A stretch of 11,886 nt of DNA from a virus. Positions 1 through 11,886 of the stretch are shown one piece after another; the stretch's first letter is position 1, and each line of letters starts with the position of its first letter. The stretch lies in the UHGV virus genome UHGV-0180981. The stretch is one strand, 5' to 3'. The notes below the pieces were generated by a model. The model searched no databases. It saw only the letters and a list, made by a program, of their open reading frames with translations, and had not been told where the DNA came from. Made by a program: the position numbers and the translations under genes.

Positions 1-76
1 GCGAAATCGGTAGACGCAGTTGATTCAAAATCAACCGTAGAAATACGTGCCGGTTCGAGTCCGGCCTTCGGCACCA
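1..76 (+). tRNA. leuX: tRNA-Leu (anticodon CAA), 3' portion; the first ~9 nt of the gene lie upstream of the window
   Basis: Sequence matches the recognised leuX tRNA from D-arm onward: anticodon loop with CAA at 26-28, long variable arm, T-arm GGTTCGAGTCC, acceptor 3' end GGCACCA ending at 76. Confidence 0.9.
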
Positions 77-77
77 A
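46..77 (+). repeat. Left copy of 32-bp direct repeat (tRNA 3' end; attL-like core)
   Basis: CGTGCCGGTTCGAGTCCGGCCTTCGGCACCAA is repeated exactly at 10288-10319; flanks diverge immediately outside the repeat. Confidence 0.8.
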
Positions 78-556
78 GTCACTAAATTCCTTACAATACA
101 GCTGGTTAGACGATTAAATCTGTCTCTTTTGCCTGTAAGAAATGCTCTGTTATGTCCCTTGAAAAAGCCGCTGTGGTTGATAGTGGTAATTGGGATGTTA
201 ACTCATAGCGGCGTGTCGTTCCAGGCGTCAAACACGTACTGACTCAACTTGAAAGCTATGACGTAGCCACCGTCTCTAAACAATCCCAAAAACTTTTAGT
301 GAAGCGCATTTTAGCCCGATGCCCCCGTTCTGTCGCCGTCGCGAGACGCCGCAGGGGATAAACAGGTTTATGGTGGTCACGGTACTTGCAGACCATATGC
401 AAGCTCTGCCAGCGGTTCGGCCTCGCTCCCCTTGGGTACATGGTCATCCTGATAAGCCTCACTAACTGACATAACCCTGATGAAGTCGCCAGAGGCTCCG
501 CTTGTTGTCTTACCACCAACGGGGCTTTATGGATTCTATTGCGGTATGTTTGAAAG

Positions 557-580
557 CGCGCGGGGGTTCATTCCCGCGCG
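557..580 (-). terminator. GC-rich hairpin 10 bp downstream of the 304-aa ORF stop (weak U-tract)
   Basis: CGCGCGGG (557-564) pairs with CCCGCGCG (573-580) around an 8-nt loop; on the minus strand only about 3 U follow, so intrinsic termination is uncertain. Confidence 0.35.
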
Positions 581-589
581 TCCGGCGCT

Positions 590-1504
590 TTATGGTAAGT
601 ATTTAAGTATTTCTGCTGCCCAGTTTACACGGTGGATGACACGGGCATGGTGCAAGTTTCCGTCTAGTATTTCGGCTTTAGTTAGCTGGGATAACTGCTG
701 CCAATTATTGTTAAGTATATAAGTTGCGTTATTACATTGTGAGCTTTCTAGCACGTAAATGTTTTGGCCTGTGAACCCAAATATCACGTAGCCTTGGAAC
801 CCAGCTTGCCCAACCGCTACGAAATCTGGTTTTTTACTATTGATAAGTTCAAGTCTGCCTTCAACAACAGCGGTATTGCCCTTTCCCCTGATCTTAATAG
901 CTGAAAGGATTTTTGAACCGATAGTACTCCAAGGCTGTTGACCCTGAGGCAGGAGGCTCCAGTTTAGTTTTATAGATTTACTTTTAACGATGGTATTAAG
1001 TTGGTCGTCAACAGTTTCGCACAACCCAAAAAGCTCTAAAAAAAGATTAATGCAGTGAGCCACTAACTCTTTGTTGTTAGCTGTCAAACTTAGCTTTGGA
1101 GAGATGATCAACTTCTCCCCTTGCAGATTCTCTACAATCTTTAACTCTATGCTTGGTGGAGGGGTGAGGATTCTCTTGTAGCGCTTATACTCAATTTCAC
1201 GAGTGTCAGTAACTTCTTGAGTTGCGCCCCCTCCGATCCATTGCTTTCTAGTCCATGAAATTTGTCTGTATGCAGTTTCTTTAGGTGCTGTTTTGTCAGG
1301 TACTGATTTGCCATTAGCATTGAATCTGGTTATTGGCCCTAAAATTTTGGGGAGGACTTCTTCACCTAAAGCTCTTTGACTTGAGAAACCAATAGAGTCC
1401 GTTTTCCCCGCATCTGGCAAAGAATGTGCAATGTAGATATCACGGCCATCAAAGTTAGGTATGTAATTATCAATATTTCGAATACGCTTTTTCTGAATAA
1501 GCAT
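590..1504 (-). CDS. Hypothetical protein, 304 aa, no recognisable family; AT-rich foreign-looking cargo gene
   Basis: Longest ORF in the AT-rich arm; ATG start with AGGAA about 8 nt upstream on the minus strand; hairpin follows the stop; no motifs recognised by eye. Confidence 0.6.
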   Translation of the reverse strand: MLIQKKRIRNIDNYIPNFDGRDIYIAHSLPDAGKTDSIGFSSQRALGEEVLPKILGPITRFNANGKSVPDKTAPKETAYRQISWTRKQWIGGGATQEVTDTREIEYKRYKRILTPPPSIELKIVENLQGEKLIISPKLSLTANNKELVAHCINLFLELFGLCETVDDQLNTIVKSKSIKLNWSLLPQGQQPWSTIGSKILSAIKIRGKGNTAVVEGRLELINSKKPDFVAVGQAGFQGYVIFGFTGQNIYVLESSQCNNATYILNNNWQQLSQLTKAEILDGNLHHARVIHRVNWAAEILKYLP

Positions 1505-1636
1505 GGATCGTTCCTTTTGATTTTATCTTACTGTTTACATAACCAACCAAGCCGGGCACAATCGAGCCGTTAGAAACGATAGTGAGGCTAACAATCGTTA
1601 TGAGTTTGCAGACTCATGGCGGTCATGCTTCATAGA

Positions 1637-1667
1637 CCGGATTCACGCAGGTGACTCCGGTTTTTTT
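1637..1667 (+). terminator. Rho-independent terminator (plus strand)
   Basis: CCGGA-T-TCAC / GTGA-C-TCCGG stem with 4-nt loop, followed by a run of 7 T (1661-1667). Confidence 0.55.
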
Positions 1668-2338
1668 ATGCCCATCATTTATACATGGGCACAACATATA
1701 GGGTGTGTTAATAAGATTACCCCCTACATGTTCAGCATTCTAGTTAGGATTCTTTGCAGTACAAGGGTTGATTTTGAGGTTAAATTGAGGTTGTCAAAGG
1801 GAAATTTCGACCAACCCTACGTGCCGTAAGGCTTAGGCTGTATGTCAATGTTTCAGAAAAAAAAATGAAAATTTGATCGAGTGCTGATTTCTTTAGCACG
1901 AGAACATGAGAACGAACCAAAATATTGCAAAGTTTTGAACAAAACTTGAACTGCCTCGTGTCTCCATAGCCAAGACGAATGCAGTTTAAATAAGCTAAGT
2001 CAGCTCTCAAAAGTCCTTTATGACCCGAACCAAAAAATGTACCTCTTAAACCCCACCGCAAGCGGCTCTCCGGGGTTTGTGCGCGTGGAGTAATGCGGTT
2101 GTACTGGGTATGTGCGCACAACCCTCTACAAGCCGCATTCTACCGTTAGCCTATAGCTGAATCCCCGGCTTGAAAAATTGTACGCTTATGGTTGCCCCTC
2201 CCTCAACTGTATAGCTCGCCCGCGCCCCCGTGCGCATGTGCGTGCCCGCGCGTCAGGGGTCGCTGAGAAAACCCTAAGATTTTGCTCATCCGAGACAACC
2301 GTTGCAGGCGCGTGTTGCCGAGGGCACACTGCTAGTGT

Positions 2339-2448
2339 TTGATGGTGTCATCAATCGTTCGATTTTTGCTACCTTCCTGAGTGATTACTATCTGGTGTCA
2401 TCAATTTAGGGTTTGACTAAATGCTACCACCAATGCAATGATGCTACC
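2339..2448. promoter_or_regulatory. Repeat cluster upstream of serine recombinase gene (candidate res/operator sites)
   Basis: TGGTGTCATCAAT exact direct repeat at 2343-2355 and 2393-2405; first copy sits in inverted repeat TTGATG-gtgt-CATCAA (2339-2354); TGCTACC three times (2367-2373, 2422-2428, 2442-2448). Confidence 0.4.
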
Positions 2449-2479
2449 GTTTTGTGATACCAGACGGGTGAGGTGAACC

Positions 2480-3055
2480 ATGAGGACTTTTATCTATTGC
2501 CGCGTTTCAACACGCGAGCAGGATACGCAGAATCAGGTGCTGGCTATTGAGCGTGCCGGGTATAAGGTGCCGGAGAGCAGGGTAATCAGTGAGGACATTT
2601 CCGGTAGCGTTCAGGCTATGCAGCGCCCTAAGTTTCGGGCGATGGTTGAGCATAAGCTGGAAGCGGGAGATCAGCTTGTCGTGCTGAAACTGGACAGGCT
2701 GGGGCGCGACAACATCGACGTGCAACAGACCATCGACATGCTGTTAGAACGTGGCGTGAAGGTGGTGTCTCTTGACCTGCCTGCGCGTGATCTGACTTCA
2801 TCTGAGGGCAAGCTAATCCGCCAGATGTTTGGAGCCTTTGCTGAGTTCGAGCGAAACCGTATCCGTGAGAGGACGCTTGACGGGCTGGAGAAGGCGAAAG
2901 CCAATGGCGTTAAGCTGGGACGCAAGGAAGCCACCGACACCACTCAAAAGGTGCAGGAGCTGCGGAGTGAGGGGCTGTCTCAATCGAAGGTAGCGAAGCG
3001 TCTCGGAGTTAGTGTGAGCACCGTTAAACGCCACTGGAACAAGGGCGAGGGGTGA
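2480..3055 (+). CDS. Small serine recombinase (resolvase/invertase family), 191 aa
   Basis: N-terminal YCRVSTREQ catalytic-serine motif, LKLDRLGRD motif, C-terminal HTH (SQSKVAKRLGVSVSTVKRH); GAGGTG RBS about 8 nt upstream of ATG. Confidence 0.92.
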   Translation: MRTFIYCRVSTREQDTQNQVLAIERAGYKVPESRVISEDISGSVQAMQRPKFRAMVEHKLEAGDQLVVLKLDRLGRDNIDVQQTIDMLLERGVKVVSLDLPARDLTSSEGKLIRQMFGAFAEFERNRIRERTLDGLEKAKANGVKLGRKEATDTTQKVQELRSEGLSQSKVAKRLGVSVSTVKRHWNKGEG

Positions 3056-3994
3056 TGACCTACAAGCGAACGAGGTGCTACGACTGGCCGTTACTGGGCT
3101 GTGGGTGATGGATTACCTACAGCTTTTGTATTTATTTCAGAGGGTTATGTTATGCTTAATATCATAACGATATGATTTATAATGTATTTTCGTGTTACTT
3201 GCGGCTCTTGATGTGAAGAGGTGGCGGGGCTTTAGCCGTGCCAGACGATGAACATCGAGATCAGATTGTGAATGTGATTTATCACTGAACAATTCAAGGG
3301 ATGGGGCAGGGGAAGGGATCAAAGGCTGCGTTGTCCAATCACTAAGCTAGATTTGAAGCTGGTGAACACGTTACTAGTATCTTTAAAGTTGCATTTAAAA
3401 TGCATGTACAAAAAAGGGTTCTTCCCTTACATCCCTTCTCCTAAATGTAGTTACGAGTGCTTCGCTCTCTTCACTTGCTGCGCTTCTCGCTATGCTCCAG
3501 CCCGCTCCATCGCCTTTGGCTCATTCCCGGTCTTCGCCCGCTGCTGATGCTCGGCCACTCTACGCAACCGTGCTTGCCGTGGCAGGCAACGCGGCGGGAA
3601 GGTGTAGTGGTACGGTACTATGTATCGGTATTATTAATGTATTCAATCACATACTGTTATCAGTAGGTATCCTTCAAAACATCTTCATCCATTTCTGTAT
3701 CATTCAATCATCTTTCTTGTTCGTTTCCTTTCAGGTCTTAGCCGTTGTTCATTGGTCTTACTGCCTGCTGTGCTACTGCCAGCTATGGCACGCCGTTACG
3801 GTCTACTGTGTCACCTGTCCTACTGCGTTCACTGTCTGCCGTCTGTCATCCTGTCGGATTCCATCCGTCATCCGTTCCGCGCTCGCTTGTTTCGGCTGCG
3901 CCGCGCTCGCTCTGCGTATCTAGCGATACTCTATCACTATAGACACTTTCATAATTATCTAATGATTACAGTAACTTATATTTTTAATTTTAAA

Positions 3995-4255
3995 GGCTAC
4001 TAATAAGGAGATATAGAGCATTACTTTCCCGCTTTTGACCGACAAAAATCGCGTTGTTAAGTATTGCCAGCCCAGGCCCAGTAAGGCTTAGCGAGGTGGT
4101 GGTTAAAAATTGACCTAATGAAAGTATCTACTAAGGAGAAAGAATAACTCCCGAAGCGAGACAAACTCTCCGATTTTGAAAGTGACTATTAAGGCAGATA
4201 AAGACACTGACACTGTTGCCGACATGAAAACCTCTATAAGGGCAGAGAGTCTGCC
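3995..4255 (+). repeat. Four degenerate direct repeats (iteron/operator-like), core CTAnTAAGG(n)AGA
   Basis: Copies at 3995-4019, 4124-4150, 4182-4209, 4231-4255, all in the same orientation in non-coding DNA upstream of the helicase-led array. Confidence 0.5.
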
Positions 4256-4316
4256 GCACCTGTACCACCGCCCCAACCTGAGCTAATACCTACCCCTATT
4301 TTCTGGAGATTTCACC

Positions 4317-6161
4317 ATGCCAACAAACCTACGCCGCCTGCTTGCGCAGGCTGCCGACGCTGACCCGCTCAATACTGCGGACGCAGATGTACAGCAAATG
4401 ATCGCTGACGGGACTGTTATTCGACGTTCCAAGATATGCCCCGTAAAGCGTAAACCCGTTAAGGCGGCATACAACACAAAGACCGAAGAGTTTTATTACA
4501 ATGCTGATGGTTCCGCTATGACCCTGCGGGAGTGGCGAACGCTGCACGGTGTTCAACCGAAGAAGCAAAAACAGCGCTCTGACGCTGGGTTGCGGCAAGT
4601 CATCCAGCCCGGCGACGCGATTCACTGTCGACGCGCTGAGATTGAGCAATGGCTAAATAAAAAGCCTGCTCGTTATGTTGAACCACTGCCGCCAGATTTC
4701 CCCGGCGTTCGCGTAGACGAGGCTGCATTGAAACCGCGCGAGCACGCCGTGCCGGAATCAACAACCGGACAGAATGCTTTTCTCAAAGCCTGCCGCGAGT
4801 TTCTGATTTGCGACGAGAAGACCATGCGCCGCATTAACAGGGGCATGAATAAACTGGAAGCGATGCGCAATACAGATTTCAAACGCTACGGGAACTCAGC
4901 GGAGTTTCGTCAATTGTGGTGTGGAGAGTCGAAACCTACCGAGGATAAATTTAACAGTACAAATCATCATTGTGACCCGAACGGCTTGGCTGCATCGCCG
5001 TCTATGCCGTCACTGAATACTGTGCCGTATGAGTTCCGTCCGCTGGTTCGCTGTGACCGAAACGCACGCGTCAGCCTGCTGCCACCCGATGGGCTGGAGT
5101 GGAGGCCGGGACAGTTGTCTGTTGCTGATGCGATCTTTACCCGTGGTAGGGATGTGCTTGCCGTACTGCCGACCGGGTATGGCAAAAGCGCCGCCTTCAC
5201 TTATCCACTGATTTATGAGTCCCGCGCTGGCATTGGCCTGTCTGTAATCGTGGTTCCTACTAATACCCTTAAGCGTCAGATTCTCCGCCAGTTGCGGGAG
5301 GCTGGCATTCACGCCGTGGCCTTTGGCGATAAGCTACCGAGGCACCGCAACGCACAACAACTGGCGGGACTAGCAGCCGGGGCGTTCCGGCTTGCTGTTG
5401 TTTCGCCTGAACATCTGGTTCCGTCGAGTCAGGTTCTCGCGGCGCTGATGGCTTATGGCGTTGATCGTTTTATTATCGATGAGGCACACACGGTCAAAGA
5501 CTGGGATTTCCGCCCAGCTTACGACGCAATGCAGCACACACTACAGAATGCTTTTCCCTCGGCTCAACGTTGCGTGTTTACGGCTACTCTACTACGTGAA
5601 AATGAGCGCGGTTTAATGGAGGCGCTGGGGTGCCGTGGCAATTACGTCACATTCCGTGCTGATGTTGCTCGCGAGCATATCCAGTTGATTCCGGTCAGGC
5701 AGTGCCGCGAACGTTTCCGAGCGGCTATTGGTCTGGTCGAGGCTCTGCCGAAAGAAGAGAAGACGCTTATTCTCGTCAATGACCTTAAAACGTTGCGGGC
5801 GTACCTGAAACTCTTGGGCGACCGGGCGCGGCCATATCACTCGAAGACGATGCACCTGAGCAACGAGGAACGCCACGCAAACGCTGAGTGGTTTGCCTCT
5901 ACGCCGGGCGCGATTCTTATTGCTACTAAAGCCTTCGGGCTGGGTGCTGATGTTCCTGATATCCGTAACGTTGTCGTGACATACGTCCCCGATGATTTGC
6001 CTGATCTCGTTCAGATGATTGGACGAGCCGGGCGCGATGGGGAACCTGCCCGCGCTTTTCTGCTGTGGTCATCGCTGGCGCTGGATGTTGCGCCTGATGA
6101 GCTTGCTTACTTCTACCGCCCTGAAAACTGCAACTGGCAGTACATCGCTAAATACCTCTGA
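4317..6161 (+). CDS. RecQ-like superfamily 2 DEAH helicase with uncharacterised ~270-aa N-terminal domain, 614 aa
   Basis: Motif I LPTGYGKS, Ia VIVVPTNTL, II IIDEAHTV with DWDFRPAY, III FTATL, VI GRAGRDG; ends about 45 aa after motif VI, so no RQC/HRDC; GGAG RBS. Confidence 0.9.
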   Translation: MPTNLRRLLAQAADADPLNTADADVQQMIADGTVIRRSKICPVKRKPVKAAYNTKTEEFYYNADGSAMTLREWRTLHGVQPKKQKQRSDAGLRQVIQPGDAIHCRRAEIEQWLNKKPARYVEPLPPDFPGVRVDEAALKPREHAVPESTTGQNAFLKACREFLICDEKTMRRINRGMNKLEAMRNTDFKRYGNSAEFRQLWCGESKPTEDKFNSTNHHCDPNGLAASPSMPSLNTVPYEFRPLVRCDRNARVSLLPPDGLEWRPGQLSVADAIFTRGRDVLAVLPTGYGKSAAFTYPLIYESRAGIGLSVIVVPTNTLKRQILRQLREAGIHAVAFGDKLPRHRNAQQLAGLAAGAFRLAVVSPEHLVPSSQVLAALMAYGVDRFIIDEAHTVKDWDFRPAYDAMQHTLQNAFPSAQRCVFTATLLRENERGLMEALGCRGNYVTFRADVAREHIQLIPVRQCRERFRAAIGLVEALPKEEKTLILVNDLKTLRAYLKLLGDRARPYHSKTMHLSNEERHANAEWFASTPGAILIATKAFGLGADVPDIRNVVVTYVPDDLPDLVQMIGRAGRDGEPARAFLLWSSLALDVAPDELAYFYRPENCNWQYIAKYL

Positions 6162-6198
6162 GTCGAAAGGCTCTCCCTGATTCTCTGGAGTTAATCAT

Positions 6199-6636
6199 AT
6201 GCCTGTTACCGAACATGCGCAGCGTCGTGCTGCGCGTGCGGATGCGCTCATCACCGCACAACTAGCCTTCGCCCTGAATGGGTACAACTGGGATGAACTG
6301 GCCGAACCTCATCGCAAGACCCTTAATCGTGAGGCCATCATTCGCGAGGTATCTACACCGCTGGAGCGATATTGCCTGCTGAATGATTGCGAGCCGTGGG
6401 AGTGTCTGGCCGCTGTACTGAACCGCATGAAAAGGCCGGATGGCTCGCGTCGCTGGAAAGCCGTCCGTTTGTCCGACCGGGTTTTCAATGGCCGAGTGCA
6501 TCCAGTGCGCAAAACGCCTGATGAAGTTTACGCCGCCATTGCCCGCCGCTTGTTCCTGCCGAAGCCCGTGCATCAAGAAGTGATACAGCACATCCGTGCG
6601 CTTGGCTTGTTACCAATTGGAGACAACCACCAATGA
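6199..6636 (+). CDS. Hypothetical protein, 145 aa
   Basis: GGAG RBS 9 nt upstream; 37 bp after helicase stop; stop overlaps next start (ATGA). Confidence 0.6.
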   Translation: MPVTEHAQRRAARADALITAQLAFALNGYNWDELAEPHRKTLNREAIIREVSTPLERYCLLNDCEPWECLAAVLNRMKRPDGSRRWKAVRLSDRVFNGRVHPVRKTPDEVYAAIARRLFLPKPVHQEVIQHIRALGLLPIGDNHQ

Positions 6637-6842
6637 CGAAATCTGAATTTGAAAATGAAACATGGCGAATGAAGGGCTTGCTTCTTGGGGCGCTGATTCG
6701 CCGCCTTGAGGAAGATAAGGCTGGCGAGTCGCGCATGGTCGCAGCGGAGTTATCCAGTGCGGTCAACTTCCTTAAGGCCAACGCCGTAGAAGCGCCGGAC
6801 ACATCATTCAACAACGTGTTCCCGGAGGATGACGAGCAATGA
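6633..6842 (+). CDS. Hypothetical small protein, 69 aa
   Basis: ATGA overlap with upstream and downstream genes; GGAGA RBS. Confidence 0.55.
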   Translation: MTKSEFENETWRMKGLLLGALIRRLEEDKAGESRMVAAELSSAVNFLKANAVEAPDTSFNNVFPEDDEQ

Positions 6843-7015
6843 CCCCTGAACAATTCAGACAATGGTTCGCCACGCTGCCACCGAACTATCAGAGCACCGC
6901 ACGCACCATGTACGACAACGCCCGCAAGTCGGGCACACATACCGCGTCAAGCCTTGCGCTGATTCACACGTTGGTTACTGACCAGATCAAATTTGATTCG
7001 GAGTTTAATTTATGA
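6839..7015 (+). CDS. Hypothetical small protein, 58 aa (below the ORF-track length cutoff)
   Basis: Translated by hand: ATG at 6839 overlaps upstream stop (ATGA), stop at 7013-7015 overlaps next start at 7012 (ATGA); GGAGGA RBS about 9 nt upstream. Confidence 0.45.
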   Translation: MTPEQFRQWFATLPPNYQSTARTMYDNARKSGTHTASSLALIHTLVTDQIKFDSEFNL

Positions 7016-7575
7016 CTTTGAGTATTACCGATATCCAGCGCATTAACGCGCTGGCTCATAAGCACCTAAAGAACAATGAAGAGATTGCAGCGGAGACAGG
7101 TCATACCCTGACCGATATTGATGCTGTAATCCGTGGCGTCTATGTCGATGACTTGGCCGAACATTGGAAAGACGATGCTGATATTACTCTGGCGGAGTAC
7201 AACGCCATCCGCAGCCGCTATAAGCCCGGCAAGCTGCACCGCGATACAGAGTTTATGATTGCCCGCGATATGCTGATTCGCCCTGAGACTGTGCTGGCTA
7301 TCGCCCATTCCCGCTTTAGCAACGTCCACACTCACCCAGTGCCGAAAGCCGTCAAAGCAAAGCCGGAGAAAGCGAAAGTAGTGCGCAAGTTGGTGCCTAC
7401 TGATTTAGATGAAATTCACAAGTTAGAGCGCTTCGGTTGGCCTGCTGCGGAGATCGCCGGGAAGCTGGGCGTCCCTGTTGAGGTCGTCGCGCATGTGCAA
7501 CGCTGCCTGAGAAATCGTTGGTCGTACCCGGATACTCTGGAGTCTGTTAACTCCAAATTCAGCGAGGCTGAATGA
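7012..7575 (+). CDS. Hypothetical protein with putative HTH motifs, 187 aa
   Basis: GGAG RBS 8 nt upstream; HTH-like segments near N-terminus and in LERFGWPAAEIAGKLGVPVEVV; ATGA overlap at both ends. Confidence 0.6.
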   Translation: MTLSITDIQRINALAHKHLKNNEEIAAETGHTLTDIDAVIRGVYVDDLAEHWKDDADITLAEYNAIRSRYKPGKLHRDTEFMIARDMLIRPETVLAIAHSRFSNVHTHPVPKAVKAKPEKAKVVRKLVPTDLDEIHKLERFGWPAAEIAGKLGVPVEVVAHVQRCLRNRWSYPDTLESVNSKFSEAE

Positions 7576-7808
7576 TGGCAGAGAACGAACCTCTGCACCC
7601 CGCCGTTAACCCTGATCTCTACGTGAACCTTGACGAACAACGTGAAGGATACGCCCCGTTTGAATCACGCGGCTGGGATGTTCTGACAAAGAACCTGTCC
7701 GGGGAAGGGCGAACTGACCCCGGCCAAATGCTTAACCAGAATCCGAAACAACGCCCGCGCGGCTCCGTTGGTGAGCGTCGTTGGCTTCGTAAACGTGGAT
7801 TACTTTAA
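7572..7808 (+). CDS. Hypothetical small protein, 78 aa
   Basis: Start overlaps upstream stop (ATGA); basic C-terminus. Confidence 0.5.
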   Translation: MMAENEPLHPAVNPDLYVNLDEQREGYAPFESRGWDVLTKNLSGEGRTDPGQMLNQNPKQRPRGSVGERRWLRKRGLL

Positions 7809-7820
7809 CGAGGAATTACC

Positions 7821-8060
7821 ATGAGCAAAACTATCGTATTGCTGCCGCCACGCAAGAATACAGACTGGGCTGCGCAATTAAAGCTGATTTCTGAATCGCT
7901 TGAGGTGAGTCAGGCAGACCTCGCCCGCGCCTATCAGGTTGATCGTCGGGATATGGGTAAAGCGTATCACGGTGTGCGCAAACTGCCGGAACGTTGTGTG
8001 CCTGTTCATATGCTGTTGTTAGCGCAGGTACACGACTTTAGAGCATTATCAGGAGAATAA
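7821..8060 (+). CDS. Cro/YdaS-like HTH DNA-binding protein, 79 aa
   Basis: GAGG RBS; HTH followed by LPERC motif (SQADLARAYQV...GVRKLPERCVPV) resembling phage Cro/YdaS-type regulators. Confidence 0.6.
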   Translation: MSKTIVLLPPRKNTDWAAQLKLISESLEVSQADLARAYQVDRRDMGKAYHGVRKLPERCVPVHMLLLAQVHDFRALSGE

Positions 8061-8063
8061 TTT

Positions 8064-8744
8064 ATGTCTGACCAGAATGTTAATCCGTACCTTTCCGGTG
8101 CTGATACTGCATCGCAGCAATCGCCGTACATGGCTGCACCTGTTGGCGCTGACAATGGCGCATCCCGCTTTAGCTCTGCGCCTGCTGATGCTGATTTCCT
8201 CCGTACCCAACCCGTTAACGGTAATGATGGCGGCCAATGGAATAATGGCAGTATCGCGAATCAGCAGGATCAGAACGCTGACAGCGCCGGGGCGCAGGTG
8301 GGCGATACTATCTCCCTGATGGATGGAACAGCTATTGAGTACACCGCCGAGCTGCAAGGATTGATGGGACAGTTTCATCAGTCTGTCGAAAGCCAGCTAG
8401 GGCAAGGGACAGTTGACGCTATGTTGCAGTACGCTGGCACGCTCGATGCCGGGACGCAATCGACCCTTGAACGGATGGTTATGTCTGGCGACCCTGCGCA
8501 GATGCAGCGAGCCGTTCAGTATCTGCAAGAGAGGATGGCTGGCGGTTCCATTACCGGTTACGTCCCGAACGGCCAGACTGCCGCGCAACCTGTCGGAATG
8601 TCACATGCTGAGTTTATAGCAGCGTATGACCAGCTTTCGCAGTGGGCGCAGCAATCAGGGTATGGCCCCGGCCATCGCCAGTACGACGAACAATACCGCG
8701 CTCTGGTTGCGCAGCGCTCCGCTGGCAAACGTGCTGGCCGCTAA
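8064..8744 (+). CDS. Hypothetical protein, 226 aa, low-complexity N-terminal half, helical C-terminal half
   Basis: AGGAGA RBS 8 nt upstream; starts 3 nt after previous stop. Confidence 0.6.
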   Translation: MSDQNVNPYLSGADTASQQSPYMAAPVGADNGASRFSSAPADADFLRTQPVNGNDGGQWNNGSIANQQDQNADSAGAQVGDTISLMDGTAIEYTAELQGLMGQFHQSVESQLGQGTVDAMLQYAGTLDAGTQSTLERMVMSGDPAQMQRAVQYLQERMAGGSITGYVPNGQTAAQPVGMSHAEFIAAYDQLSQWAQQSGYGPGHRQYDEQYRALVAQRSAGKRAGR

Positions 8745-8861
8745 CACCCAACGGTGGAATGCGCCCTGCAAGACTGAGTGCGCACCAACCCGGTACTACC
8801 ACACCAATCTATGCGCATGAGTCCCCGCAAGCCGTATTCTGCGCGGCATCTGAAAGCCTGT

Positions 8862-8887
8862 TTTTAATTAACCGAGGTTCGTAATGA
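8862..8887. promoter_or_regulatory. hix/gix-like 26-bp site with core AACCGAGGTT
   Basis: Core 8870-8879 is the gix crossover-region sequence; each flanking half-site matches the hix half-site consensus at about 8/12; overlaps the ATG at 8884. Confidence 0.25.
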
Positions 8888-9297
8888 GTACCTGTAATTT
8901 CCATGCCGTGGAGCGTGTCGCTGACGTGCGCCCGGATTTCGCCTTGCCGCTGGGTAGATGCGATCACATTTACCCTGAGCGTGTGCAGCACGTTTTCAAT
9001 CCAGACGAGGCGGTTTATATCGTTGCCCGGTCTGCCACATCCGGCACCCGCACATCTGGCGTTAGCCGTGGGCTTTCCCCTGTGCTGCCGCCGAAGATGG
9101 CCGAGCGCATGCGCGAACGTGAACGGCACGAGAAGAATCGAGCCAGACCCCGCAATGTGATCACTGAGGCAGTACGCGCTGACATTATCGAGCGCTCTGC
9201 AAAAGGTCAGAAGAATCGTTACATTGCAAGCAAGGTTGGTGTGTCTGAAACCTCTGTGCGGAAGGTGTTGAACATGGCGCGTATGAGTGCGCACTAA
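8884..9297 (+). CDS. DNA-binding protein with C-terminal Hin/resolvase-type HTH, 137 aa
   Basis: C-terminal RPRNVITEAVRADIIERSAKGQKNRYIASKVGVSETSVRKVL resembles the Hin DNA-binding domain; no catalytic domain; true start may be an internal Met. Confidence 0.55.
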   Translation: MSTCNFHAVERVADVRPDFALPLGRCDHIYPERVQHVFNPDEAVYIVARSATSGTRTSGVSRGLSPVLPPKMAERMRERERHEKNRARPRNVITEAVRADIIERSAKGQKNRYIASKVGVSETSVRKVLNMARMSAH

Positions 9298-9493
9298 TGC
9301 AAGGTAATACGTTCGCCTTACTTCACGCGCATTAACCCCTGAGAACCGCGCCAGCTCTGGCCTCAAAACGCCCATTCGGGGCACCTCATCCCTTTAATCG
9401 ATACCGTTCTGAATCCTGCCTCGGCGGGAGGATTCCGCACGTCTGTGCCATGACGATGGCGCGGGCTTCATCAACCTATGTAGGAGTTTTGTT

Positions 9494-9991
9494 ATGGCTG
9501 ATACTTCGTACAGTCCCGATCTGTTTCGCCCACACTATGGCGGGGTGGAATCCGACAATGATATTCACATCGAGGCTTATGACCGGGACATCCAGACCCG
9601 TTTAGAGTCCAAATCTGTATTTCTGGCCGAGGGGCTGTCTACATACAGGCCGCTGAAAGCCAGCAACCAATATCGTGTTGATCGCCTGAGTGGTGATCTG
9701 GAGGTGAAGGGCAGAGCCGCAGGGCAATCGCTGGAGCATACCGCCGTTAAGTCGGACAAGCTGATTATCTCTGTGGATACGCTGAGCTATCTCCGCATCC
9801 CGATTGACTATCAGGAGGACTGGACAGCACCCACTTTTCGCTCAGAGCTGAGCCGCAATATGGGTACTGCTCACGCTAAATTCTACGACGAAGCGCACAC
9901 CATCCAGCTAATCAAAGCGACTGACTTTGTATCGCCGCCGACACTGCAACCAACGTTTAACCCACTAAGCGAGTCCATTCCAGAGCAATAG
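9494..9991 (+). CDS. Hypothetical protein, 165 aa; possibly an N-terminal fragment of a T7-like major capsid protein
   Basis: AGGAG RBS 8 nt upstream; by-eye resemblance to T7 gp10 N-terminal region (LF...GG, ED...RSExxxxxGxxxA); ORF ends at about half normal capsid length. Confidence 0.55.
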   Translation: MADTSYSPDLFRPHYGGVESDNDIHIEAYDRDIQTRLESKSVFLAEGLSTYRPLKASNQYRVDRLSGDLEVKGRAAGQSLEHTAVKSDKLIISVDTLSYLRIPIDYQEDWTAPTFRSELSRNMGTAHAKFYDEAHTIQLIKATDFVSPPTLQPTFNPLSESIPEQ

Positions 9992-10154
9992 CATCCCGAA
10001 ACAATCGCGCTTGGCGTACATCGCGTGTCCCTGTGCTTTTCATAAAGTAGCGCTTCCCTTGGAACAGGTGGCGCATGTAGTTGGGGATAGCTATCCGCAC
10101 GAGGTAATTCCCGCAGGGATCTAAAACTAGATAACGATCTCTCTTGAAACTCAT
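9957..10154 (-). pseudogene. Tyrosine integrase N-terminal remnant (about 65 codons)
   Basis: YLVRIAIPNYMRHLFQGKRYFMKSTGTRDVRQARLFRDAIALEWTRL fits the integrase N-terminal arm-binding pattern; stops after 65 codons, no catalytic domain; sits about 130 bp inside the right repeat. Confidence 0.35.
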
Positions 10155-10159
10155 ACAAA

Positions 10160-10185
10160 CCCCGGTTATGTTGTCGGGGCTTTTT
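10160..10185 (+). terminator. Rho-independent terminator (plus strand) near right end of island
   Basis: CCCCG (10160-10164) pairs with CGGGG (10175-10179), optionally extended by a G-U pair, followed by 5 T (10181-10185). Confidence 0.5.
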
Positions 10186-10287
10186 CATGGCTAAACAGTC
10201 TGTGAAATGTGCCGGGGTCATGAGCTTTAGTCTAGCTAGTTCAACAAGTTAACGATGATTGTTGAAGCAAGCTAAGTCGCTATAACC

Positions 10288-10319
10288 CGTGCCGGTTCGA
10301 GTCCGGCCTTCGGCACCAA
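10288..10319 (+). repeat. Right copy of 32-bp direct repeat (attR-like; partial tRNA 3' end only)
   Basis: Identical to 46-77; upstream sequence does not match the tRNA body. Confidence 0.8.
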
Positions 10320-10333
10320 AAGATGCAAATCAA

Positions 10334-10357
10334 AGTCGCTTAAGGGCGGCTTTTTTT
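10334..10357 (+). terminator. Rho-independent terminator, probably the native leuX terminator displaced by the insertion
   Basis: AGTCGC/GCGGCT stem (one G-U pair), 6-nt loop, 7 T (10351-10357), immediately after the right repeat; no equivalent follows the tRNA at 77. Confidence 0.6.
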
Positions 10358-10714
10358 GTGTCTGAAATACACGTAAAGTTTTCCTTTCAACGGAAGACAA
10401 TCTGATTCAGCCAATATCAAATTTCTTATAAGTATAGAACAGAATATATTCTCATTCGATAATTGTCATATTTGTGCATAAGCTTTCCGGTGATTTTGAA
10501 AGGTTATTTGTCTTAGCCTGACGCTTTCCGCTTTATCCTGGAAAAGGAATGTCTGCTGTCCCGCATGGTTTAAACATCTCACATCTGCTGTAACGAACCT
10601 CAAACTTTCTCCATCATTGATTAACTTGCTGTGATTTTGGTCATTGCTCGGGAAGCTTCAGAAAGTTAAAGTAAAAATTATGTTCCTAAAATGTATGCGC
10701 AGGCCTGCATAACA

Positions 10715-11886
10715 ATGATGAATAAATCCAATTTTGAGTTCCTGAAGGGCGTCAACGATTTCACCTATGCCATTGCATGTGCGGCGGAAAATAACTACCC
10801 GGATGATCCCAATACTGCGCTGGTAAAAATGCGTATGTTTGGCGAAGCGACGGCAAAACATCTTGGTCTGCTGCTGGATATTCCTCCCTGTGAAAATCAG
10901 CACGAACTCCTGCGTGAGCTTGGAAAAATTGCCTTCGTTGACGACAGCATTCTTTCCGTGTTCCATAAATTACGTCGTATTGGTAACCAGGCTGTCCACG
11001 AATACCATAACGATCTTGATGATGCTCAGATGTGCTTACGGCTAGGTTTTCGGCTGGGCGTCTGGTACTACCGTTTGGTTACGAAAGATTATGACTTCCC
11101 TGTGCCTGTTTTTGTTTTACCGGAGCGCGGAGAAAATCTTTACCGTCAGGAAGTACTGACGTTAAAACAAAAGCTAGAAGAGCAGTCACGTGAGAAAGCA
11201 CTCAGTCAGGCTGAACTCGAAGCACAGCAGCAGAAACTGATTGCTCTGAACGGTTATATTGCCATTCTTGAAGGTAAGCAGCAGGAAACTGAAGCACAGA
11301 CATTGGCTCGTTTCTCAGCACTGGAAGCGCAGTTAGCTGAGAAAAATGCGAAGCTGGCTAAGCTCACGGAACAGGAAAGAAAAGCCTACCATAAAGAAAT
11401 TACCGACCAGGCCGTCAAGCGTACACTGAATCTCAGTGAAGAGGAGAGTCGCTTCCTGATTGACGCTCAGTTACGTAAAGCGGGTTGGCAGGCGGATAGT
11501 AAAATGCTGCGCTTTGCCAAAGGTGCTCGCCCGGAACCGGGTATTAATAAAGCGATTGCCGAATGGCCTACGGGCGTAGATGAAACGGGTAAGCAAGGAT
11601 TTGCGGATTATGTTCTGTTCGTTGGCCTCAAGCCCATCGCCGTTGTCGAAGCAAAACGTAAAAATATTGATGTTCCCGGCAAGCTGAATGAGGCTTATCG
11701 ATACAGTAAATATTTCGATAATGCGTTTTTGCGCGATACGCTTCTGGAGCAATTTACCCCCGACGATATACACGAAACCCTACCGGTTTACGAAATCAGC
11801 TGGCAAGATACCAGCGGCACACAGCGTTTTAAAATCCCCTTTTGCTACTCCACCAACGGGCGTGAATACCGCGCGGCAATGAAGAC
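10715..11886 (+). CDS. hsdR: Type I restriction enzyme R subunit (HsdR, EcoKI-like), N-terminal ~390 codons; continues past window end
   Basis: Hand translation from ATGATG at 10715 is open to the window end; N-terminus MMNKSNFEFLKGVNDFTYAIACAAENNYPDDPNTAL matches the recognised EcoKI-family HsdR N-terminus; coiled-coil Q/E/A-rich segment. Confidence 0.9.
   Translation, partial: MMNKSNFEFLKGVNDFTYAIACAAENNYPDDPNTALVKMRMFGEATAKHLGLLLDIPPCENQHELLRELGKIAFVDDSILSVFHKLRRIGNQAVHEYHNDLDDAQMCLRLGFRLGVWYYRLVTKDYDFPVPVFVLPERGENLYRQEVLTLKQKLEEQSREKALSQAELEAQQQKLIALNGYIAILEGKQQETEAQTLARFSALEAQLAEKNAKLAKLTEQERKAYHKEITDQAVKRTLNLSEEESRFLIDAQLRKAGWQADSKMLRFAKGARPEPGINKAIAEWPTGVDETGKQGFADYVLFVGLKPIAVVEAKRKNIDVPGKLNEAYRYSKYFDNAFLRDTLLEQFTPDDIHETLPVYEISWQDTSGTQRFKIPFCYSTNGREYRAAMK

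Follow-up and report, generated by a model that had tools for sequence, protein, structure and literature searches.

The DNA analysed here, an 11,886-nucleotide window of viral genome UHGV-0180981, carries a tRNA-Leu(CAA) gene (leuX) whose 3' end is repeated about 10 kb downstream, which raises the question of what kind of element lies between the two copies. The original prediction read the block as an island of about 10.2 kb inserted immediately upstream of hsdR. Our analysis identifies it as a leuX integrative element that has lost 5.2 kb, and from the sequences compared the intact members of its family are probably satellites of virulent T7-like Bonnellvirus (Autographiviridae) phages. No published description of such a Bonnellvirus satellite was found in the literature.

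Insertion site and right flank

The features that define the insertion, in window coordinates, are:

1 to 76, + strand: tRNA-Leu(CAA) (leuX), its first 8 nt missing at the window edge (Rfam, 1-73; ARAGORN on L011)
46 to 77, + strand: attL, the left 32-bp direct repeat, made of 31 nt of the tRNA 3' end plus 1 nt (exact repeat)
10288 to 10319, + strand: attR, the right 32-bp repeat (exact repeat)
10332 to 10360, + strand: native leuX terminator, outside the island (terminator scan; directly 3' of leuX in empty-site genomes)
10715 to 11886, + strand: hsdR (type I restriction enzyme), 5' part only, belonging to the host flank outside the island (Pfam HSDR_N and DUF4145)

The window contains two exact copies of the 32-mer CGTGCCGGTTCGAGTCCGGCCTTCGGCACCAA and no more, at 46-77 and 10288-10319 as originally reported, both on the + strand; with up to two mismatches permitted it was matched in 0/200 dinucleotide-preserving shuffles. 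As in tRNA-integrated islands, this direct repeat duplicates the tRNA 3' end at both ends of the insert, and it brackets 10,242 bp within tRNA-Leu(CAA). Rfam matched RF00005 at 1-73 as a 5'-truncated tRNA (38.4 bits), and ARAGORN made no tRNA call there, since the left edge of the window cuts off the first 8 nt of the gene; on L011, the same locus in a public assembly (99.98% identical to the window), ARAGORN found a complete tRNA-Leu(caa) at 499-583, corresponding to window -8 to 76. Neither program found a tRNA body at the right repeat in the window, in agreement with the claim that the body exists at the left only; the right repeat does not belong to another tRNA gene. The terminator predicted beside it was recovered as a terminator-like hairpin (10332-10353) followed by a T-run.

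Alignment to related genomes lacking the insert, which the original prediction had proposed, revealed uninterrupted sites in Enterobacter mori, Enterobacter sp. MGH 24, E. pasteurii, E. nematophilus and one Buttiauxella-labelled MAG. In these genomes an intact tRNA-Leu(CAA) is followed directly by the sequence of window 10320-10364/8, terminator included, at 97.6-100% identity, and the interior of the block is not conserved core sequence without the repeat. The insertion is thereby confirmed, with bounds resolved to within the 32-bp repeat. The block at 78-10287 is an integrative element in the leuX 3' end of an Enterobacter-like chromosome, the host being Enterobacter-like, and it entered by tyrosine-integrase recombination that duplicated the 32-bp att core.

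The predicted neighbourhood of hsdR holds in position, as the gene starts at 10715, but hsdR is part of a variable flank and has no link to the island. In L011 a full hsdR-hsdM-hsdS set is followed by a YjiV/MZB helicase, and the window hsdR is only 82% identical to that of E. coli. Since the sequence past ~10368 is absent from the empty-site genomes, and some of these carry other hsdM/hsdS-like genes in its place, leuX is followed on the right by a variable restriction locus.

A deleted copy of a 14.7-15.4 kb element family

Between the repeats, the following genes and the deletion junction were annotated:

590 to 1504, - strand: cargo gene of variable slot 1, encoding a 304-aa protein
2480 to 3055, + strand: small serine recombinase, resolvase/invertase type (Pfam Resolvase, 8.3e-37, and HTH_7)
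4317 to 6161, + strand: RecQ-family SF2 helicase, core at residues 261-589, first gene of a long + strand operon (Pfam DEAD and Helicase_C)
6199-6636, 6633-6842, 6839-7015, 7012-7575, 7572-7808 and 7821-8060, + strand: six small conserved ORFs (same ORFs annotated in E. coli relatives)
8064 to 8744, + strand: scaffold-like protein, 226 aa (C-terminal match to Bonnellvirus scaffolding protein)
8884 to 9297, + strand: 137-aa protein with C-terminal HTH (weak Pfam HTH_23; weak PHROG HTH/late-activator)
9494 to 9991, + strand: truncated major capsid gene, native to 9968 (158 of 331 codons), then reading through into integrase-derived DNA (KFu019 alignment)
9957 to 10154, - strand: tyrosine integrase stub, a 65-codon ORF whose N-terminal codons are native as far as 9969 (alignment with the KFu019 integrase gene, 401 aa)
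9966 to 9968, no strand: junction of the 5.2-kb deletion, with TAA microhomology (alignment of the window to L001)

The ORFs of the long operon, from the helicase through the endonuclease VII-like gene, were each scanned against at least one family library. The helicase matches PDB RecQ (3e-32), and its N-terminal 260 aa form an orphan region found in this island family only. It matched a DpdF-labelled PADLOC model at 6e-273, and both NCBIfam models, recQ_fam and DpdF, fell under their cut-offs; a Dpd (7-deazaguanine) system was rejected, with the DpdF equivalog scoring 123.7 bits, its cut-off being 550, and all other dpd genes absent. The serine recombinase gave sub-threshold NCBIfam matches only, and a terminator-like hairpin lies at 3096-3125 by terminator scan. 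The six small ORFs gave no family matches apart from a weak HTH in a 187-aa protein; a 69-aa ORF shares only a weak 20-aa patch with phage TerS. Pfam, PHROG and NCBIfam scans revealed neither a portal, terminase or protease gene nor AlpA/Xis, a primase or a repressor. The original prediction had passed over the phage-derived character of the element, with its capsid and scaffold genes and its copies of Bonnellvirus genome-end DNA.

The E. coli KFu019 copy matches window 1-9968 and 9969-10319 at 100% identity and has a further 5.2 kb between these parts; in L001 the two parts correspond to 3001-12968 and, for window 9966-10375, to 18124-18530. The deletion spans from the middle of the capsid gene to codon ~60 of the integrase gene, and the deleted allele is identical on 14 public contigs. 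The predicted size of about 10.2 kb is therefore that of the present block, the original integrant having measured ~15.4 kb. Half of the capsid gene (the remainder is identical to the first half of the KFu019 gene), the HNH gene, the endonuclease VII-like gene and a PvuII-type R-M system were lost, along with all but 65 codons of the integrase. The stub ORF carries Pfam DUF6538, the N-terminal domain of the KFu019 integrase, and is all that adjoins the att site in the window, whereas full-length relatives have intact 401-aa integrases.

A core match was found in 60 of 5426 complete E. coli genomes (~1%), always in single copy and in 59 cases chromosomal, and repeat-to-repeat sizes were 15,400, 15,061, 14,918 and 14,713 bp. 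The window island is a deleted copy of this 14.7-15.4 kb family. From the left, intact copies comprise attL, cargo slot 1, the serine recombinase, ~1.2 kb of non-coding DNA, the RecQ-like helicase and small ORFs; the right part comprises the scaffold-like, HTH, capsid and HNH genes, two small ORFs, the endonuclease VII-like gene, slot 2, the integrase and attR. This layout is conserved across family copies while the cargo differs, the slots holding defence-type genes (AbiTii, TIR, DUF3800, AbiJ, PvuII-type and other R-M systems, and the YafO toxin). An identical element occurs in E. coli and Enterobacter.

Phage-end DNA, phage-type proteins and the origin of the family

The non-coding part of the element contains DNA in common with Bonnellvirus genome ends:

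2160 to 2208, + strand: segment A, a copy of Bonnellvirus sequence across the left boundary of the terminal repeat (CCCGGCTTGAAAA..GCCCCTCCC/TCAAC; megetsur/J8-65 alignment)
3803 to 3980, + strand: segment B, copied from the Bonnellvirus non-coding stretch that separates the terminal repeat from the early sigma-70 promoters (phage alignments)
4118-4136 and 4177-4194, - strand: two inverted partial copies of the downstream half of the segment B motif, in the helicase-operon leader (inverted repeats I4 and I13; direct repeat D6)

Segment A is 89-91% identical to megetsur 39983-40027 and aligns with J8-65, whose record annotates a 259-bp terminal repeat beginning right after CCTCCC; it is kept in 7/7 island copies and 5/5 Bonnellviruses compared. 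Segment B is 96.6% identical to megetsur over 177 nt and 89-97% identical to 15 Bonnellvirus records. In its motif TATCACTATAGACACTTTCAT (3932-3952), AT-rich DNA follows a core resembling a T7 promoter. Reading this motif as a promoter or origin is uncertain: a phage genome contains it just twice, once inverted immediately behind the RNAP gene, and a recurring promoter consensus could not be derived for the phages. Island and phage lineages correspond: megetsur is the phage nearest to the window and E2348/69 copies, both with the ACAC motif type; Kc261 is nearest to the 22AR0118 copy, with the TCAC type; and RZ4 is nearest to the IMG/VR copy.

The full-length capsid protein (331 codons) matched phrog_267, major head protein (6.7e-67), and podophage capsid structures in the PDB (6e-79); the matches listed are Autographiviridae-type podophages, with Bonnellvirus giving the best phage matches (55% aa identity). 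Purifying selection acts on the island capsid genes (dN/dS 0.07-0.20). Segment B retains its 96.6% identity to phage DNA even though the capsid genes have reached saturation at synonymous sites (dS ~2). The 410-aa Bonnellvirus scaffolding protein aligns over its residues 311-409, end-to-end, with residues 128-225 of the 226-aa protein; identity is 31%, and E is 1e-4 in the pairwise comparison and 0.004 when the phage proteome is searched. The endonuclease VII-like protein is 29% identical to phage endonuclease VII. The scaffold and TerS similarities are both weak, at E 1e-4 or weaker.

One explanation is that an ordinary integrative island acquired segments A and B and the capsid gene as functionless scars of illegitimate or homologous recombination during infections. 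The shortness of segment B (177 nt) and its near-identity to phage DNA are as after recent recombination, and the LT883142 island lineage keeps segment A with no segment B detectable. Scars would scarcely be expected, however, to retain segment A in every lineage compared, the most divergent included, or to keep ~80 nt of segment B near-invariant across islands and three phages whose genomes are 80-88% identical overall (PMC8402661, Table 2). The segment versions of different island lineages match different phage lineages, and with the constraint on the capsid gene this makes scars the least probable of the explanations considered.

Decay of an integrase-bearing, temperate T7-like prophage at leuX, leaving a few genes and the end region, would explain why the element combines an integrase and genome-end DNA with a T7-like capsid gene and with scaffold-like and endonuclease VII-like genes, and temperate features are described for the T7-like phage LUZ100 (PMC10134795). 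Random decay is not expected to yield so uniform a gene set, though: the compact 15-kb set is found whole, 80-100% identical, in ~59 E. coli chromosomes, no copy examined has genes for RNAP, DNAP, portal, tail or terminase, the capsid is under purifying selection, and most genes (RecQ-like helicase, serine recombinase, small ORFs) have no phage counterpart. We consider such a remnant very unlikely.

A satellite fits these observations better. At 14.7-15.4 kb, the family consists of small integrative elements without a complete virion, lysis or replication set, in which the only such genes recognised are those for the capsid, scaffold-like, HNH and endonuclease VII-like proteins. Segments A and B, the capsid, the scaffold C-terminus and the matching of lineages all point to a specific helper. 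Enterobacter-infecting Bonnellviruses exist and have segment B in common at 92.7%, in keeping with an element identical between E. coli and Enterobacter. Infection would probably switch on the long + strand operon from segment B, whose motif resembles T7 promoter/origin elements in its T7-type promoter core and AT-rich DNA; the element would then excise and be copied. Its capsid and short scaffold proteins may assemble with the helper portal, core, tail and terminase into heads sized for ~15 kb, ~36% of the 42-kb helper genome. We propose that the helper terminase would cut and package the satellite DNA because segment A reproduces the phage terminal-repeat boundary sequence, and the cargo slots would carry defence-type genes along. 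Against this reading stand the lack of recognised portal, terminase, protease, AlpA/Xis, primase and repressor genes, the LT883142 lineage with segment A but no detectable segment B, the uncertain nature of the motif, and a negative search for the attP junction.

The same genes and phage-end copies might act only as decoys or poisons against Bonnellvirus assembly and packaging, in an anti-phage island that spreads by other means and is never packaged. Both variable slots hold defence-type cargo, leuX is a documented hotspot for defence-carrying elements (bioRxiv 10.1101/2025.09.15.676423), and an exact search for the excised-circle attP junction gave no hit in IMG/VR or JGI metagenome contigs, both IMG/VR matches being integrated or fragmentary copies. 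On the other hand, sizes that stay within 14.7-15.4 kb whatever the cargo, retention of the very sequence at the terminal-repeat boundary, and one and the same element in two genera are all expected from packaging and transduction. Helper interference is seen in known satellites as well and is thus compatible with transfer. We judge an island without transfer to be unlikely, albeit the foremost alternative to the satellite.

The window copy itself cannot act as a satellite. It lacks the integrase, a complete capsid gene, the HNH and endonuclease VII-like genes and slot-2 cargo, retaining only the cis mimics, the helicase operon as far as half of the capsid gene, the serine recombinase and the slot-1 gene. 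With nearly all of the integrase lost it is immobile and fixed in place, and the circular-junction PCR would now be expected to be negative; at most, the copy could still interfere with phage.

Comparison with known systems

The cf-PICIs of Enterobacteriaceae are ~15-kb integrase-bearing chromosomal islands with their own major capsid protein and HNH endonuclease, a helper supplying the rest of the virion; known examples code for the whole of head formation and packaging (portal, protease, terminase, connectors), temperate siphoviruses providing just the tails. The present family is likewise ~15 kb, integrase-bearing and equipped with its own capsid gene and HNH. It differs from cf-PICIs in that the recognised set consists solely of capsid, short scaffold-like, HNH and endonuclease VII-like proteins, in that its capsid is of the T7/phiKMV podophage type, and in that its helper would be a virulent autographivirus. 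Assignment to the cf-PICIs was rejected, as the family-library scans of the long-operon ORFs recognised only the capsid and HNH of the full head module.

A classical PICI/SaPI-like island was also rejected, the capsid gene being present and no divergent regulators, AlpA, primase-replicase or TerS/packaging-interference matches appearing in Pfam, PHROG and NCBIfam, which recognised no P4 or PICI marker gene in the element. For a P4-like satellite, Psu, Delta, Sid, alpha primase-helicase, AlpA and a P4-type integrase were not detected; the integrase here has a DUF6538 N-terminal domain and the helicase is of the RecQ-type SF2. SaPIs and P4 redirect helper capsid size, with genomes about one-third of the helper's, by combining the helper capsid protein with their own size-determining factors (CpmAB, Sid). 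The present element, at ~15 of 42 kb, is consistent with similar small-capsid packaging, and its genes suggest that satellite-supplied proteins act on capsid assembly here too; it differs in having its own capsid gene and a truncated scaffold homologue.

Plasmids with a T7 origin and the T7 concatemer junction were reportedly packaged by T7 into transducing particles (Chung and Hinkle, 1990). Segments A and B may similarly make a non-phage replicon packageable through phage junction or end sequences and a phage-promoter origin, in an arrangement that, unlike the laboratory construct, is natural and chromosomal and includes capsid and scaffold genes.

Satellites of virulent phages are represented by PLE in Vibrio cholerae and the PICMIs of Vibrionaceae, the latter described as lacking capsid-remodelling genes (PMC9410903, PMC10803314). 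The proposed helper of the present element is equally strictly virulent, so that induction must come from infection and not from prophage induction. Its gene content is unrelated to theirs, and the PLE and PICMI helpers are not Autographiviridae.

At E. coli leuX, defence-carrying elements have inserted sequentially (bioRxiv 10.1101/2025.09.15.676423). They differ in their prophage-like integrases, AlpA-like excisionases, HUH rolling-circle Rep proteins and large payloads, and none is described there with a T7-like capsid, RecQ-like helicase or phage-end mimicry. The present family resembles them in occupying the same tRNA-Leu hotspot next to ahr, in its tRNA 3'-end direct repeats and defence cargo, and in the occurrence of immobilised copies with integrase fragments (bioRxiv 10.1101/2025.09.15.676423).

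Integration into leuX and the neighbouring restriction locus

The features at the borders of the island are as follows:

46-77, left copy of the 32-bp repeat (attL), which is the 3' end of tRNA-Leu(CAA), the leuX gene
10288-10319, right copy of the 32-bp repeat (attR)
10332-10360, terminator-like hairpin with a T-run
10715, start of hsdR

The 32-mer CGTGCCGGTTCGAGTCCGGCCTTCGGCACCAA occurs exactly twice in the window, and the shuffled window gave zero matches with 2 mismatches tolerated, confirming the exact repeat that had been noted as bracketing the block. Rfam reported a 5'-truncated tRNA at window 1-73, and a complete tRNA-Leu(caa), equivalent to window -8 to 76, was called on the window's own locus in three public assemblies (L011-L013; 99.98-99.99% identity to the window). 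The failure of ARAGORN to call this tRNA in the window was an edge effect, the first 8 nt lying outside, and was settled by Rfam and the extended locus. Neither program found a tRNA ahead of the right repeat, and the original prediction of a tRNA body at the left only, with a terminator to the right of the right repeat, therefore holds. Sub-threshold Rfam matches to AaHKsRNA82 (10326-10404) and potC (1662-1698) were discarded as terminator-like hairpins. The latter falls in the non-coding stretch that separates the slot-1 gene (the first of two variable cargo positions) from segment A (window 2160-2208), where a + strand terminator-like hairpin with a T-run, which has nothing obvious to terminate, is found at about 1636-1668; a second hairpin following it, up to 1698, gives the potC match on the minus strand.

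A junction query composed of the tRNA end and the right flank was searched for exact matches in one genome per species and returned 6 loci. At five of these (Enterobacter mori, Enterobacter sp. MGH 24, E. pasteurii, E. nematophilus and a Buttiauxella-labelled MAG) an intact tRNA-Leu(CAA) is followed directly by the sequence of window 10320-10364/8, the arrangement anticipated for genomes lacking the insert, and at the sixth, in Enterobacter sp. ECC-219, a related element occupies the site. In L011, the 500 bp that precede the window share 95-96.6% identity with these Enterobacter loci and gave no match to E. coli past the tRNA region; judged from this flank, the host of the window copy is Enterobacter-like.

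The empty-site genomes lack the sequence beyond about 10368, and two empty loci (L004 and L007) and the occupied one (L002) carry other hsdM/hsdS-like genes to the right of leuX. Since this flank is absent or different in other Enterobacter, the restriction gene belongs to a variable restriction/defence locus on that side of leuX and not to the island; the predicted position of the island beside a type I restriction gene is thus correct as to adjacency alone. To the right of leuX (window 10369-11886; L011 11222-20498), hsdR-hsdM-hsdS is followed by a 2106-aa YjiV_N/MZB helicase gene on the opposite strand, and in E. coli E2348/69 an element of the same family likewise abuts an HsdR gene. leuX has been described as a hotspot for the sequential insertion of other, unrelated defence-carrying elements (bioRxiv 10.1101/2025.09.15.676423). 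A tRNA island beside a restriction gene is routine, and the weight of the analysis lies in the identity of the island.

The island family and the deletion in the window copy

The core of the island (window 3300-9960) was matched in 60 of 5426 complete E. coli genomes at 80-100% identity, EPEC E2348/69 among them, always as one copy per genome and with 59 of the 60 matches chromosomal. The copies examined sit at leuX beside ahr, with the exception of strain 5735 (L031, NZ_CP154887.1), whose family member is not beside leuX/ahr in the examined stretch. This variant encodes a different integrase alongside a second site-specific one, as well as a DUF4145 gene; the genes bordering it on either side share one protein accession, an arrangement that suggests a module swap to another integration site.

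The layout of the family is constant and reads, from left to right, attL, slot 1, a small serine recombinase, about 1.2 kb of non-coding DNA, a 614-aa helicase, six small ORFs, a 226-aa protein, a 137-aa HTH protein, the capsid, an HNH endonuclease, two small ORFs, an endonuclease VII-like gene, slot 2, the integrase and attR. The cargo across the family comprises AbiTii, TIR, DUF3800, AbiJ, restriction-modification systems, a YafO toxin and the 304-aa protein of the window, and despite these differences the four measurable copies span 14,713, 14,918, 15,061 and 15,400 bp from repeat to repeat.

The helicase has a RecQ-family core (residues 261-589) preceded by 260 amino acids that are restricted to the island family, with 14 close homologues. 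The PADLOC model PDLC02858, labelled DpdF, matched this lone helicase (4317-6161) over the whole profile at 6e-273. Membership in a Dpd system was rejected, as the NCBIfam DpdF score was far below the cut-off and no partner dpd genes were found; PDLC02858 may itself derive from sequences of this family. The serine recombinase is of a generic type, and a search for its target sites gave none that were clear. The slot-1 protein of 304 aa is a member of a widespread family that lacks annotation; its 722 homologues include archaeal ones, and in other genomes they are found in the context of defence islands or prophage ends. AF2 gave a confident model of the protein (pLDDT 89), which returned no informative fold match.

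Window 1-9968 is 100% identical to the element of E. coli KFu019 (NZ_CP091700.1; river water, Japan), which measures 15,400 bp from repeat to repeat, and window 9969-10319 corresponds to an identical KFu019 stretch lying 5.2 kb further along. The junction, at 9966-9968, has a TAA microhomology. The following were lost in the deletion:

capsid gene, 3' half
HNH endonuclease, two small ORFs and endonuclease VII-like gene
PvuII-type restriction-modification system (methylase, C protein and endonuclease)
401-aa tyrosine integrase, except the first ~60 codons

The resulting 165-aa capsid fusion ORF is present, without a changed residue, on 14 public contigs, whose sources include an NCBI assembly and several metagenomes; the deleted allele therefore recurs in independent public assemblies. 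Lacking an integrase, the window copy is unable to excise; it is a fossil and exemplifies the usual fate of such elements, which lose the integrase and become fossilised in a defence-rich locus. The evidence for integration into leuX, for the later loss of 5.2 kb and for a family with a conserved layout is direct.

Deletion aside, some 10.2-10.3 kb of the element are 100% identical between the Enterobacter-like host and KFu019, an identity that argues for a very recent transfer between genera.

Protein and genome-end homology to Bonnellvirus

The full-length island capsid is a major head protein (phrog_267, 6.7e-67) whose nearest solved structures are podophage capsids (6e-79). Against 50,697 phage records its best matches were the capsids of Bonnellvirus (Autographiviridae), at 55% identity, the remaining matches among those listed being Autographiviridae-type podophages. 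A dN/dS of 0.07-0.20 between island lineages indicates that the capsid is a working gene. Upstream of it, separated by the 137-aa HTH gene alone, lies the gene for the 226-aa protein. The final 100 residues of this protein and of the phage scaffolding protein (410 aa) can be aligned end-to-end, at 31% identity and E 1e-4, and the endonuclease VII-like protein shares 29% identity with its phage namesake, endonuclease VII. A patch of 20 aa that the 69-aa ORF has in common with phage TerS was set aside as too weak.

At the DNA level, the sole kind of match between the island and the phage collection in megablast was segment B (window 3803-3980), a non-coding sequence found in 15 Bonnellvirus records at 89-97% identity; the hosts of these phages include E. 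coli, Enterobacter, Cronobacter, Kosakonia and Pantoea. Its phage counterpart occupies the gap that separates endolysin, the last late gene, from the sigma-70 early promoters preceding the SAMase gene. Segment A is a second, shorter match, 380 bp upstream of segment B within the same phage gap. As no data on termini were found in the Bonnellvirus papers, the phage ends were taken from the annotation of the J8-65 record, which gives 259-bp direct terminal repeats, the two copies of which were checked and are identical. The J8-65 repeat begins right after CCTCCC, at TCGACCC. Segment A, which reads CCCGGCTTGAAAAATTGTACGCTTATGGTTGCCCCTCCC followed by TCAAC, reproduces the 40-odd bases before the repeat boundary and the first five after it, and is kept in all 7 island copies and all 5 phages compared.

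Segment B is positioned beyond the terminal repeat. A stretch of about 80 nt within it is nearly invariant among two islands and three phages whose whole genomes are just 80-88% identical (PMC8402661, Table 2), and segment B as a whole retains 96.6% identity, whereas synonymous sites are saturated (dS ~2) between the island and phage capsid genes. In the LT883142 lineage (L020, NZ_LT883142.1, 6590-8050), segment A is present and segment B was not detectable; the intergenic region of this type matched no phage in the collection, and the lineage may be tuned to a helper not yet sequenced. The homology of the capsid, the scaffold C-terminus and endonuclease VII to Bonnellvirus, together with the copies of genome-end cis sequences, is thus observed directly.

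Segment B contains the motif TATCACTATAGACACTTTCAT (window 3932-3952), with AT-rich DNA following; the motif core TCACTATAG matches that of T7-type promoters. In every phage of the genus that was examined, the motif (TATCACTATAG-NNNN-TTTCAT) occurs exactly twice, once in segment B near the left end of the genome and once inverted, directly after the RNA polymerase gene. In phage megetsur these are:

40536-40556, + strand, motif copy
~18857-18877, inverted, motif copy

The pair is likewise present in L017, L018 and L024. In T7, promoter-plus-AT-rich origins are found directly after the RNA polymerase gene and near the left end, and we take the Bonnellvirus positions to resemble T7 phiOL and the primary origin. 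The four bases after TATAG co-vary within a phage, being ACAC in megetsur, TAGC in Kc261 and TCAC in RZ4, and another matched pair, ACAGTTACTTTCAT, occurs in J8-65. The window and E2348/69 copies are of the ACAC type and nearest megetsur, the 22AR0118 copy is of the TCAC type and nearest Kc261, and an IMG/VR copy is nearest RZ4; in these sequence types the islands follow phage lineages. A repeated phage-promoter consensus was sought in megetsur and no 11-mer family was found, so that the argument for CACTATAG as a promoter is one of resemblance and position, and we regard the motif as a candidate promoter, origin or protein-binding site.

Two inverted, degenerate copies of the downstream half of the motif (TAGxxACTTTCA), at window 4118-4136 and 4177-4194, are found between it and the start codon of the helicase gene. 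They could anneal to the 5' end of an RNA started at the motif, or serve as binding sites for protein. A 143-aa ORF (window 3492-3923), gene-called on some public contigs (L011-L013) and left unannotated by RefSeq in the E. coli relatives, overlaps segment B and a strongly C/T-skewed non-coding stretch and is probably spurious.

A putative satellite and its relation to known systems

From these sequence relationships we infer that intact members of the family are satellites of Bonnellvirus. Under this model, infection by a Bonnellvirus would activate the + strand operon via segment B, and the element would excise and then be copied. The island capsid and short scaffold would form small heads with the portal, core, tail and terminase of the helper, and segment A would make the element a substrate for cutting and packaging by the helper terminase. 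The length of the element, about 15 kb, amounts to about 36% of the 42-kb helper, similar to the proportions in SaPI/80alpha and P4/P2. A recent phage-mediated transfer fits the presence of an identical element in E. coli and in an Enterobacter-like host, as the phage genus infects both. An exact-pattern search for the attP junction gave 0 hits in IMG/VR and 0 in the JGI metagenomes, and a capsid search of IMG/VR returned integrated or fragmentary copies only.

We put at about even the chance that the family is the first recognised satellite of virulent T7-like (Autographiviridae) phages in Enterobacteriaceae. Such a satellite would make a T7-type capsid of its own with the help of a truncated scaffold, gain packaging by mimicking the terminal-repeat boundary of the helper, and use a helper-derived promoter/origin-like element as an infection sensor, with no need of a repressor; its cis mimic would be repeatedly refreshed from, or co-evolve with, individual Bonnellvirus lineages, and it would move between Escherichia and Enterobacter. 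The searchable literature describes satellites of temperate phages and of a small number of virulent phages that infect vibrios, streptococci and streptomycetes, and none of T7-like podophages. In the one open-access library searched, no description of this island family or of any Autographiviridae satellite was found, which is not proof of novelty. Acinetobacter phage AJO1 (16 kb, with a T7-like capsid) was considered as an analogous satellite and set aside, its record being marked UNVERIFIED and a partial phage sequence.

If the model is correct, satellite biology would extend to a major group of virulent phages, and the family would provide a natural test of the sequences needed by a T7-type terminase and a possible case of induction via a phage RNA polymerase promoter. 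It would also explain how defence cargo of the leuX hotspot moves between Escherichia and Enterobacter, the same element being 100% identical in both, and would bear on phage therapy and typing with Bonnellvirus-like phages.

The element differs from classical PICIs, cf-PICIs, P4-like satellites and the Dpd system in that it does not carry the marker set of any of them. Plasmids with a T7 origin and a concatemer junction are reportedly packaged by T7 in the laboratory, and by analogy the element appears most like a capsid-encoding satellite combined with such T7-packaged plasmids.
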